This document shows, in pieces, positions 24,001 through 27,000 of a stretch of DNA of 53,428 bases. Origin of the DNA: a virus (Duplodnaviria > Caudoviricetes); IMG/VR virus record IMGVR_UViG_3300032303_001488, positions 1 to 53,428 of that record. One strand, written 5' to 3'. How positions within the stretch are numbered: the first letter of the stretch is position 1; every line of letters starts with the position of its first letter. Position numbers: made by a program.

Positions 24001-27000
24001 ACGAGATCAAGAAGCTGCGGGACGCCCTCAAGTCTGCACTAGACCAACGCGACTTGCTGGCCGTGAAGGTCAGTCAGTGGGAAGCGTCCTACGTATTCAA
24101 CGTAGACGAGCGGGAGTCGATCAAAGAGGCCATCGTAGCTCTTCGATCCCTACTGGATAGAACCAAATGAGCGAACACTGGCTGCAACACGCACACGGCA
24201 GGATTGTCGCAGGCGACGATGAGCTAGATGTGCTGGCAGACTACGGCTGGGTGCAGATCACCGACGCGGAGCGGGACGCTCTGGAGTTTGCCGTCGAAAC
24301 AGGTCGCGTTGCCACCCATGACACAGCTATCCTTCGCACACTACTGGATTCGCACACTACTGGAACGGATGAAATGACAGACATCATCGACCGGCTCCGT
24401 ACTTGGTGCCACGCCCCGAACGCTGCGTCGGCCCAAGACCTCATGGACGAGGCTGCGGATGAGATCAGACGCCTGCGTAGCTCAATGGCAGAGCAGCAGT
24501 TTTGTAAACTGCCGGTTGCTGGTTCAAGTCCAGCCGTAGGCTTCCTCACCGCAGAGGAGCGGGAGGCGTTCGCATGGGGCCTCAACTGGCTGGCCGCAAG
24601 ATTCTGCATGGATCACAACCCAGCCGCCCACCAAGACATCAAGACCCTACAGAAACTCTTTGCCCGCCTAGATGTGACAAAACCTATGCCCATAGAAACA
24701 AGTGCCGAGGTTTCGTCACACCCCAAAAGCGACCGCATCTACGTGTCAAGCCAAGATGCAAGCGACTAGATGACGACTCGACCCGACCATCGGCCATATA
24801 CCTAGTGTAGAGATACCGACCCACACCCAGCAGCTACGAAACTGCGCATCACAACAGAGAGGGGGTGATCGAAGCATGGCGGCCCCAAAGAAGAAAAAGA
24901 GTGAGTACGGTTCGAGCAAGGGTTGCATGTCGGGCAAGCCCCAAGTCGGTGGCCAACCACCCGACCTACGTGCCAAGTTGACGGCAGCGTACAACGCCAT
25001 GGAGTACGGCGGCGGCACCAAGACGCCGAATGAGAACAACACGCCCAAGTACCCCGAGCGACAGAAGCCCAAGAAGTCCAAGTGAACATGAAATGCCGCG
25101 ACCTACCAGCTTTGCAGCTCTGCAAGAGTACGTGTGGACGAAACTTCCGCGCCGACGCTCCATGGTCGGCAAGGAAGCCGTCTACGACGTTGTCGCCCTG
25201 GCTGTGCAGGAATGGCCAGCGGAAAAGTTCGGCCAGTGCCAAGGCGAAGAGTCGGAACGCGACCTACTCCAAGGGCTAGAGCAGGATGTGCGGCGGCACA
25301 TGGACTTGGTCTATGGCGACCGCAAGTGCGGCTCTGTCTGGATCATCGCCCTGCAATTCATCCTCCCGATCATCATTCGTCTTGTTTACGATTGGTGGAA
25401 AAAGCGGAAGGAGAACAAGGATCGGATGGCCAAGTGGCAGTCCGAGCTAGTGGGCGACACTGACCCCCCATCTCCTCCGGTGGACAATGGCTAAATACAA
25501 GAAGCCACAAGAGGGCATGTTCCCTCCCATGCAGCCCAATGAGGGCTTTGGGGAGTATCTGATCCGCACCGGCAACGCCCAGCGGGCCACGCCGTACAAG
25601 CGGCGGGCAGTCGATTACCGTACCCCGATGGCCAAAATGGTAGGGGATTTCAACACCGACATCACCAATCAAGAGCTTGAGGATTGGTATATGTCGCTGG
25701 ACGAGAGGGCCAGCCCCGAGCATGAGCAGTTCAAGCAGAGCCTAGCTGCCACCCTAGATGAGCCGGTATTCACAGGGTCGCCGCCAGACAAAGACCCCGA
25801 CGCAGACGGCTACGTGCCGATGAACTTCAATCAGTGGTTCTTGGAGAACATCACGCCGCTGGTGTGGAACAAGACCGGGGTGGACTACGACGCAGCCGAC
25901 AACATGAAGGAACAGGTTCTCGCCAAGCTCATGGGCGAACCCTACGACTTCTACGATCCAGACATTGAGCTATACACCACCATGGCTCTGGACAACCTCC
26001 GCGACGGCCAGACTGCCGACGAGTTCCCGGCCATGTCCGAGAGCGAAGCCGCCGAGGCCCAGCAGAAGTACGGCCCAAATGCCCGCTTCTACCTTGGGAA
26101 CGACAGGCAGGAGAACCGCGCCCGCGAAAACGCCTACCGTCTGGCGCAGACGTTTGCGAATGGCGAACACTCCCCACCTGGGGTCGGCGTTGCTCCTGCG
26201 GCTCTGGCAACAGCGGGCCAGACCATCAACGCCTTGGGCGACTTGCTGACCATCTCGCCACAGAACAGCGACGGCGGTGACGGCTACGACAATGCACGGC
26301 TGGCCGTGGACGCCCTATCGGGGATTCAAGGCCGCTTGCGGAGCGCAAACTACTGGTCGAGGCGTGGTGCCGAGCAACCCGAGCTGGCGTTAGACCAGAT
26401 CACCGGGGCCAACTCGCCCAATGAGTCTGCCACCAACATGGCGGGGCTGGGCAACAAGATGGCCAAGTCAGACGGCTACTACCAGTTCGGCACCAACGTC
26501 CTCAAGAGCCTGTTCGACACCGGAAGCACGGCCCGTTACGAGCATGAGCGTCTGAATAACCGCACTACGCCAATCGTCCCCGATAGCGTCAAGGCCGATC
26601 CCCAGCAGCTTGCTGACAGGGCCGAAGCCGCCAAGCTCTTCGAGGAACACAAGCAGGGCAGTGAGGACTACGCACCGGCAATGGCCAAACGGCTATTCGG
26701 ACGGACAACGCCGTTCGTAAATGACATGGTCAACCTGCCCCGCGAAATACTCACCGACCCTGCGAGCCTTGTTGGTCTGGCCGGTGGTGGCATCTACGGC
26801 CTAATGAAAGGCGGCTTGAATGCCCTGCCCGCCGTAACGGCTGGTATCGGTAGCGAAATGGTCGAGGAGGGCGTCGAAGGGGCCGCTCTTGGCGGCGGGT
26901 TCGGTGGGTACGACTATTTCTTTACCCCCACCGCTGATAACGCCCTGACCGGGGACGTAGACCCTCGGGACGCCAATGCTTACAAGTCCGCACTTGAGGC

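Follow-up and report, generated by a model that had tools for sequence, protein, structure and literature searches.

Can one strand of phage DNA carry a complete tRNA gene and, through the same nucleotides and in frame, part of a protein-coding sequence? This question is raised by IMG/VR virus record IMGVR_UViG_3300032303_001488 (Duplodnaviria; Caudoviricetes), in which a tRNA-Thr gene lies inside an open reading frame (ORF) that stays open across it. The DNA analysed here, termed the window, is the entire record of 53,428 nt, with a completeness estimate of 91% and a G+C fraction of ~0.59. A search of sequencing runs for the window sequence listed 19 DNA runs, labelled as freshwater or lake metagenomes, and no RNA run; its source is an uncultured freshwater phage. 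Comparing the locus with its relatives, we lean, with modest conviction, towards a functional tRNA lodged in a tolerant protein linker, where each transcript would yield either the tRNA or the protein.

A tRNA-Thr gene within an open reading frame

ARAGORN finds a single tRNA in the 53,428-nt window, a tRNA-Thr(tgt) on the plus strand, and Rfam model RF00005 covers the same nucleotides, 24471-24542, end to end (model positions 1-71 of 71) with 68.6 bits against a gathering threshold of 29. The ORF at 24167..24769 crosses this tRNA without a stop, reading ...EAADEIRRLRSSMAEQQFCKLPVAGSSPAVGFLTAEEREAFAW..., in the order ...EAADEIRRLR-SSMAEQQFCKLPVAGSSPAVGF-LTAEEREAFAW.... The locus is composed of the following parts:

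24167..24769 (+), the ORF of 200 amino acids as present in the window, read as an EHWL-B gene fused to an A-tRNA-B-tail gene (ORF list)
24335..24366 (+), a 16-nt tandem duplication with copies at 24335-24350 and 24351-24366, 14/16 identical (comparison with a contig of run X7; sequence)
24374..24769 (+), the tRNA-bearing gene proper, 131 amino acids: module A, tRNA-encoded linker, module B, tail and stop (homologues P0001 and P0045)
24374..24478 (+), module A (MTDIIDRLRTWCHAPNAASAQDLMDEAADEIRRLR; alignment and AlphaFold 2), the last 8 nt of which are also the 5′ acceptor strand of the tRNA
24471..24542 (+), tRNA-Thr, anticodon UGU, 72 nt, CCA not encoded (ARAGORN and Rfam)
24545..24673 (+), module B (LTAEEREAFAW...TLQKLFARLD; motif scan, alignment and AlphaFold 2)
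24674..24766 (+), conserved C-terminal tail (VTKPMPIETSAEVSSHPKSDRIYVSSQDASD; alignment with homologues)

Only one of the three frames of the tRNA is free of stops, and it is the frame of the ORF; the other two contain TAG. These results bear out the initial annotation, which had placed a complete 72-nt tRNA-Thr on the same strand within an open ORF, between the motifs EAADEIRRLR and LTAEEREA. Its claim that the tRNA 5′ end encodes RLR also holds: the first R codon (CGC) takes its last two bases from the acceptor strand GCCTGCGT, which also contains the L and R codons in full. Similar motifs that it had listed without a tRNA are all present as well, namely EALDEIKKLR and VDERESI in the neighbouring gene 23916..24170 and ITDAERDAL earlier in the same ORF. 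Its second tRNA-derived sequence within a reading frame could not be reproduced, as a blastn-short search of the tRNA against the window gave only 12-nt chance matches (best E 0.16) and Rfam at E<=1 over the window gave no further tRNA-like match.

The length of the open frame is by itself only moderately unlikely, because at a stop probability of 0.033 per codon (window composition) an open run of 131 codons has p ~0.012, and 4.3% of the stop-to-stop stretches of the window reach 131 codons; for 200 codons the probability is ~0.001. A stronger point is that both flanks, in the frame of the ORF, are recognizable modules of one protein family (see below). Furthermore, there is no in-frame ATG, GTG or TTG between the D-loop ATG (24485) and codon 148 (24608), so the sequence LTAEEREAFAW is reachable only by ribosomes that have crossed the tRNA.

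The 200-residue ORF evidently arose when the 16-nt tandem duplication, whose unit begins CGCACACTACTGGA, joined an EHWL-B gene in frame to the A-tRNA-B-tail gene. One contig of run X7 is 16 nt shorter at 24341, and when one copy is removed in silico the translated upstream gene ends ...AILRTLLERMK-stop, with its TGA (24375-24377) overlapping the ATG at 24374 as ATGA. The EHWL-B gene stands free in locus L004 at 3001..3210, and the homologous proteins P0001 (119 amino acids) and P0045 (90 amino acids) begin at the matching MTDIIDRLR.

Structural conservation of the tRNA

Four DNA copies of the tRNA family were compared. The cloverleaf has a 7-bp acceptor stem, a 4-bp D stem, a 5-bp anticodon stem and a 5-bp T stem, and all 21 pairs are standard in all four copies, such that pairing is kept in 84 of 84 stem cells. 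The pair 28-40 is A-U in two copies and G-C in two, a compensatory change, whereas the changes at 5-67 (G-U or G-C) and 12-22 (U-A or U-G) are G-U compatible; the remaining variable sites fall in loops. A third Watson-Crick type at 28-40 (U-A) is implied by the peptide QLFCEQP of protein P0048, as inferred from the protein sequence. A covariation score equal to that observed was reached by 97 of 500 shuffles, a statistic that with n=4 sequences only is weak alone. Also, the minimum free energy (MFE) fold of the 152-nt mRNA context retains the cloverleaf. The score of 68.6 bits, the intact pairing and the confinement of change to compensatory, G-U-compatible or loop substitutions together argue that the tRNA is real and under structural selection.

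The peptide encoded by the tRNA appears to follow the RNA, because the substitutions that preserve the cloverleaf cause radical amino acid changes (Q>R, K>E and L>P). This pattern bears on a view in which only the protein matters and the tRNA is a captured, decaying relic that serves as pure linker-coding sequence and gives no mature tRNA. Consistent with decay, and to judge by protein sequences alone, at least one T-stem mismatch would be uncompensated in P0001 (VEG for VAG), and in P0049 (KPK) the last pair of the anticodon stem would be mismatched. CCA is not encoded, and directly 3′ of the anticodon the L005 and L020 copies have G in place of A, which is unusual for a tRNA that reads ACN codons. 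However, a relic would not hold every stem pair through a compensatory change or score so far above the gathering threshold, and the radical peptide changes track stem pairing rather than protein chemistry. The tRNA is also perfectly folded where no protein module lies behind it (L020 and the L005-type). We therefore consider a relic improbable.

An origin by integration is more improbable still. Temperate phages often integrate into tRNA genes, carrying part of the tRNA in attP, and the window does encode a recombinase and a LexA-like DNA-binding protein, so the tRNA might be a copy of an attachment site, or a scar left when the phage integrated into a host tRNA-Thr gene. However, it is complete rather than a 3′ fragment, it lies in different genes in different relatives, and the recombinase domain is of the resolvase (serine) type rather than that of a tyrosine integrase. 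The 3′ 21-mer of the tRNA, searched against 185,579 species-representative bacterial genomes, gave two chance matches in Achromobacter, neither holding a tRNA. The initial annotation had offered a second att site as one explanation; with the 21-mer in no host tRNA gene among those genomes and the only recombinase among the 28 large ORFs of the window being resolvase-type, that suggestion finds no support.

The tRNA occupies the joint of a modular protein family

A search with the 200-residue product returned 41 proteins. Their layout comprises an N-terminal module A (MTDIVERLR...AQDLMDEAADEIERLR), a hypervariable linker of 0 to ~150 residues and a C-terminal module B (LTDEEREAIEW...TLRxLLERLK-stop). 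To judge from these alignments, the family is a shuffled set of small proteins in which helix module A ends with RLR and B starts with LTxEERE. In tRNA-less members RLR is joined directly to LT (...EIERLRLTDEEREAIEW in P0036, P0037 and the minus-strand gene of L005), and the tRNA thus occupies the A|B joint of the family. The A, B and tail modules all align with proteins that lack the tRNA.

An AlphaFold 2 model of residues 70-200 (predicted local distance difference test, pLDDT, 63), which is a sketch only, has two helix pairs: helices 2-13 and 17-42 in module A, and helices 60-80 and 83-99 in module B. The tRNA-encoded stretch is modelled as a helix end and a low-confidence loop (residues 43-59) between these pairs, and the tail as disordered.

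The tail has the 31-residue consensus VTKPMPIEISAEVSSHPxSDRIYVSSxDxSD-stop and also ends P0001, P0002, P0004, P0005, P0006, P0009, P0031, the L002 gene 3494..3760 and P0045. In these nine proteins it is joined to quite different N-terminal parts, and it always ends the last small gene before an intergenic region and large rightward ORFs.

Recurrence in database proteins

The peptide encoded by this tRNA, or by a diverged copy, is read in frame in 17 database proteins. Eight were among the 41 first matches (P0001, P0003, P0004, P0005, P0009, P0017, P0018 and P0020), and all four matches of a search for short proteins carry it (P0042-P0045). An exhaustive HMMER search with a 44-residue query gave 12 matches, including five new proteins with the tRNA peptide (P0046-P0049 and P0051).

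Upstream of the tRNA, module A ends in EIRRLR, EIKRLR, MIGRLR or EIARLR. Elsewhere the tRNA follows a 37-residue leader, the main part of another gene (LKCWQCLR), or only the short MNDDERLR or MTDDECLR, which resemble the first RLR of module A (MTDIIDRLR). The leader is conserved without insertions or deletions (indels) in three variants (P0042, P0005 and P0044). Downstream, the tRNA is followed by module B, a different linker (SLDAVPDAIAYADGE..., SLDAVPD), another module or the tail. The diverged tRNA copy (GST[AV]EQRFC..AGSTPAAG), found in P0047 and P0051, is likewise in frame behind RLR. In B modules behind the tRNA the motif E-R-x-A-[ILVF] is kept in 13 of 13, and nine keep the canonical ...LLERxx stop (P0003, P0017, P0020, P0042, P0043, P0044, P0046, P0048 and P0051), although the middles of the tRNA-linked B modules diverge widely.

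Contexts and alleles at the DNA level

To sample the tRNA independently of ORFs, exact-word and degenerate scans were made of IMG/VR, JGI metagenomes and Logan contigs. Exact 21-mer and 24-mer scans of viral and metagenome contigs found only L002-type and L005-type contigs, and a degenerate peptide-pattern scan added L020 together with 28 unrelated tRNA loci that serve as controls. Five distinct contexts were obtained, a small sample whose junctions are partly shared by descent:

Context 1, the arrangement of the window, colinear in a contig of run X2
Context 2, L002, a syntenic relative of 58.5 kb with the tRNA in the neighbouring gene 3204..3497 (leader, tRNA, B)
Context 3, a 1,745-nt contig of run X3 with A, tRNA, 7 nt and tail, net -123 nt relative to the window, in frame, corresponding to P0045
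Context 4, the L005-type, behind an upstream minus-strand gene, with the leader broken by a stop and a 1-nt indel; not nested
Context 5, L020, the tRNA in a 46-residue ORF (MNDQIGRLR, tRNA, 16 residues) with no module behind; not nested

The tRNA is thus nested between modules in three contexts and not in two. In L002, the ORF 3204..3497 has ATGA start/stop overlaps with both adjoining genes, and the adjacent 3494..3760 is the homologue of the window gene without the tRNA. The run X7 contig holds a tRNA-less allele of the window gene itself, net -174 nt, in frame, like P0006. These comparisons indicate that the same gene has natural alleles with and without the tRNA, with the frame kept in all; a comparison of homologous genes of both kinds had been proposed in the initial annotation as a check on the nested tRNA.

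In L005-type contigs the tRNA is followed by a remnant SLTDEERE, then a strong hairpin and then a B module. This 34-nt hairpin (L005 3098-3131; MFE -23.8 kcal/mol) has perfect arms, and its peptide RHHIPDAGKMV / ERHHIPDAGNMV lies within the ORFs of P0006, P0011, P0024 and P0025. It may be a second structured nucleic-acid element inside coding sequence in this phage group; a loose pattern for it gave no match in the window.

A stretch of ~70 nt upstream of the tRNA is conserved at the nucleotide level between L002 (3236-3306) and L005 (~2932-3001). The same stretch forms the 37-residue leader in L002, P0005 and P0044, and in L005 it is the leader broken as described above. A leader peptide, a promoter and a processing signal are all candidates for its role.

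Is the protein frame maintained?

The protein frame looks maintained, because the motifs and stops of B are kept, the leucine two codons after the tRNA has changed synonymously at two bases (CTC in the window versus TTG in L002 and L005), and in the window no in-frame start lies close behind the tRNA. Several observations weigh on the other side. Module A of the window differs from that of the tRNA-less L002 homologue in 16 of 35 codons, and the substitutions by codon position (5/8/9 in A and 3/4/3 in the tail) have no excess at third positions, which suggests that purifying selection on the A and tail modules is weak, or that the sample is too small to demonstrate it. The many contexts are not independent votes for selection, because recombination at the RLR and LTxEERE codons preserves phase, and many junctions may be in frame by descent. 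Protein databases, moreover, show only ORFs that span the tRNA. The TTG behind the tRNA in L002 and L005 is a possible independent start for B, and the tRNA does not need the ORF, as two of the five DNA contexts (L005-type and L020) are not nested.

ORFs also span other tRNAs. At ~22 distinct unrelated phage tRNA-Thr loci used as controls, two (L025; L033, which equals L034) are spanned by an ORF, spanning being defined as at least 30 codons from an upstream start and at least 30 downstream of the tRNA. Four of the 12 HMMER matches (P0050, P0052, P0053 and P0054) are unrelated repeat ORFs that run through tRNA arrays of other organisms; these are gene-call artefacts and establish that artefactual ORFs through tRNAs occur. 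They resemble the window in that the same tRNA frame gives peptides like ...AEQ.FC....AGSSPA.G. In contrast to the window, where the flanks are modules that are also joined directly in tRNA-less proteins, the flanks of the artefacts are homologous to no protein module.

The artefacts are built of repeated tRNA-derived peptides, for example ...SSVAERQSCKLKVLGSIPS.... The spanning ORFs of the controls lie at L025 1372-1830 and, in L033 and L034, at 1267-1689; either the flanks there do not look like genes, or the gene that follows starts at an ATG of its own.

Such points favour an explanation in which only the tRNA matters: an ordinary phage tRNA would have landed among shuffled small accessory genes, with the ORF across it incidental, a product of in-register RLR/LTxEERE recombination in a GC-rich, stop-poor genome. 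RNase P would then cut the transcripts, the stop-less upstream product would be discarded, and B and the tail would not be expressed from this copy. This explanation accommodates the perfect cloverleaf of L005-type and L020 contexts without a module-bearing ORF, the ~70 nt common to L002 and L005 at the nucleotide level with an indel and stop in the latter, the lack of a third-position excess in the flanking modules, and the chance ORFs and gene calls through other tRNAs. It has a precedent in the mRNA of T4 segB, which is cleaved at its last codon in the maturation of a tRNA-Arg, according to the available excerpts of one report (PMC2330249).

Other findings count against an incidental ORF. 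Behind the tRNA, B modules and tails are intact in all 13 B-linked cases despite their diverged middles, whereas dead downstream modules should have acquired more frameshifts and early stops than the single case of L020. The leader ahead of the tRNA is free of indels in P0042, P0005 and P0044, the L002 ORF is ATGA-coupled on both sides, and the diverged tRNA copy of P0047 and P0051 is still in frame behind RLR. On this evidence we judge an incidental ORF unlikely, while giving it serious weight.

A proposed competition between tRNA processing and translation

Under the reading that we favour, a functional tRNA in a tolerant linker, the coding sequence for the variable linker of a small modular phage protein would contain a tRNA-Thr(UGU) gene that shares its strand and frame. 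The 5′ acceptor strand of the tRNA would double as the (R)LR codons that close module A, and the only stop-free frame of the tRNA would lead the ribosome into B. The gene would be transcribed as part of a rightward operon of small genes. Just downstream of this operon, large ORFs in the same direction take up the remainder of the window. A search of 22500-25600 for sigma-70-like sites found 0 against 1.2 expected, with no promoter of the tRNA's own seen, and a scan for plus-strand terminators near the tRNA found none.

Each transcript could then meet one of two fates. In the first, cleavage by RNase P at 24471 and by a 3′ nuclease near 24542 would release the tRNA and destroy that message, leaving a 5′ piece without a stop and a 3′ piece without a start. 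In the second, ribosomes would cross the unprocessed cloverleaf to make the A-linker-B(-tail) protein, in which about 21-24 tRNA-encoded residues would act as a flexible spacer. Ribosomes may compete with processing by unfolding the pre-tRNA as they translate. Both products would thus be made, with processing and translation in competition, although the intact message might be almost absent if RNase P cleavage is efficient.

The tRNA cassette would have moved among paralogues by recombination at short homologies in the RLR and LTxEERE codons, and use of these homologies would keep the frame. The cassette could hop between paralogues without breaking genes because its acceptor strand reads like the RLR codons at the end of module A. 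It is possible, though we propose it only tentatively, that in this freshwater phage lineage the tRNA is a mobile in-frame linker cassette, and that the contest of RNase P with the ribosome sets up a reciprocal coupling between tRNA-Thr(UGU) supply and protein output. The matching codon ACA accounts for 145 of 833 Thr codons (17%) in the 28 large ORFs.

The initial annotation had posed a choice between a dual-coding locus, with tRNA maturation and translation mutually exclusive, and a tRNA that had invaded a tolerant linker. We see these as two halves of one picture. Comparative support for it comes from the position at the A|B joint, from alleles that carry or lack the tRNA and from the 17 proteins, whereas the production of either product is what we infer.

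Relation to known systems

In the E. coli thrU-tyrU-glyT-thrT-tufB operon, tRNAs and an mRNA share a primary transcript, which RNase P and other nucleases cut apart. That operon differs from the window in that its tRNAs lie outside coding sequence, and it can therefore yield both products from the same transcript.

Closer cases involve overlap. According to the excerpts available of one report, maturation of tRNA-Arg severs the T4 segB message between the last codon and the stop codon, and homing-endonuclease ORFs in the tRNA cluster of T5 were proposed to behave as T4 segB does (PMC2330249). As in the window, a phage ORF and a tRNA overlap on one transcript, and tRNA maturation, by cutting the message, is thought in that account to limit the protein (PMC2330249). 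In segB as described in that report, the ORF meets the 5′ end of the tRNA with its last codon and stop only (PMC2330249), whereas the ORF of the window encloses the entire tRNA in frame, as ~21-24 residues with conserved modules on both sides.

A nested arrangement is described for octocoral mitochondria, where a putative tRNA-Pro-like gene within mutS is conserved among relatives and termed dual coding in the excerpted text (PMC11353228). The likeness to the window is a tRNA-like sequence nested inside a protein-coding region (PMC11353228). The octocoral element is tRNA-like and putative and belongs to a mitochondrial genome with tRNA-punctuated processing. In contrast, the window is from a bacteriophage, its cloverleaf is canonical and scores highly, and the tRNA recurs in many gene contexts, with alleles that carry it and alleles that lack it.

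A full-text literature search, with subscription journals outside its reach, turned up no account of a phage coding sequence with an in-frame nested tRNA. Overlap of tRNA and mRNA and dual coding thus appear to be known in kind, and the nested in-frame phage case would be a variant. A reciprocal tRNA/protein switch, if true, would have no described counterpart in phages.

Annotation pipelines and manual guidelines treat the overlap of a tRNA with a coding sequence as an error and delete one call; this locus argues that both calls are right in at least one phage lineage. If so, it would be a natural system for directly measuring tRNA processing against translation on the same RNA, with the tRNA-plus and tRNA-minus alleles of the same gene as ready controls. 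It would also suggest a route by which phage tRNAs spread in genomes with almost no intergenic space, through a tolerant linker and codon-level homology at its ends. The tRNA-derived peptides in metagenomic protein databases would then be a mixture of artefacts and possibly real linkers.

Genomic setting

A Pfam scan of the 28 large ORFs of the window identified several functions, and the ORF list contains a paralogue just upstream of the tRNA-bearing ORF:

11012-11524 (+), sigma-70 region-2 protein (Pfam)
11495-12313 (-), resolvase-type serine recombinase (Pfam)
14332-14823 (-), LexA-like DNA-binding protein (Pfam)
23916..24170 (+), upstream paralogue of 84 amino acids with an A′ module, a spacer and a B′ module, without tRNA (ORF list)

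Further Pfam matches among the large ORFs are a helicase, a PDDEXK nuclease and a triple-fn3 protein. To judge by the serine recombinase, the LexA-domain protein and the sigma-70 region-2 protein, the phage may be temperate and encode a transcription factor of its own.

The start codon of the upstream paralogue is preceded by AGGAGA, and its end forms an ATGA overlap with 24167..24769. Pfam and PHROGs gave nothing above threshold for the tRNA-bearing ORF or its neighbours, including this paralogue, and the Atlas neighbours of the paralogue and of the A-B family are all labelled ‘hypothetical protein’. When 23800-25000 was compared with the DNA of isolate phage records, matches were limited to the tRNA part, against the tRNAs of other phages, and tblastn of the 524-residue ORF 25487-27058 and of the family protein P0026 against isolate phages gave 0 matches.

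Upstream of the small-gene cluster, among GC-rich hairpins, an RsmW-like Rfam match at 23039-23173 (+) has 24.7 bits and E 0.23, far under the gathering threshold, and is probably either a structured intergenic RNA or chance. Directly after the tRNA-bearing gene lies a gene for a very Lys/Gly-rich conserved protein of 66-69 amino acids (MAAPKKKKSEYGSSKG...; window 24876-25085 (+), L002 3864-4064), which is preceded by a strong ribosome-binding site of the GGGGG type.

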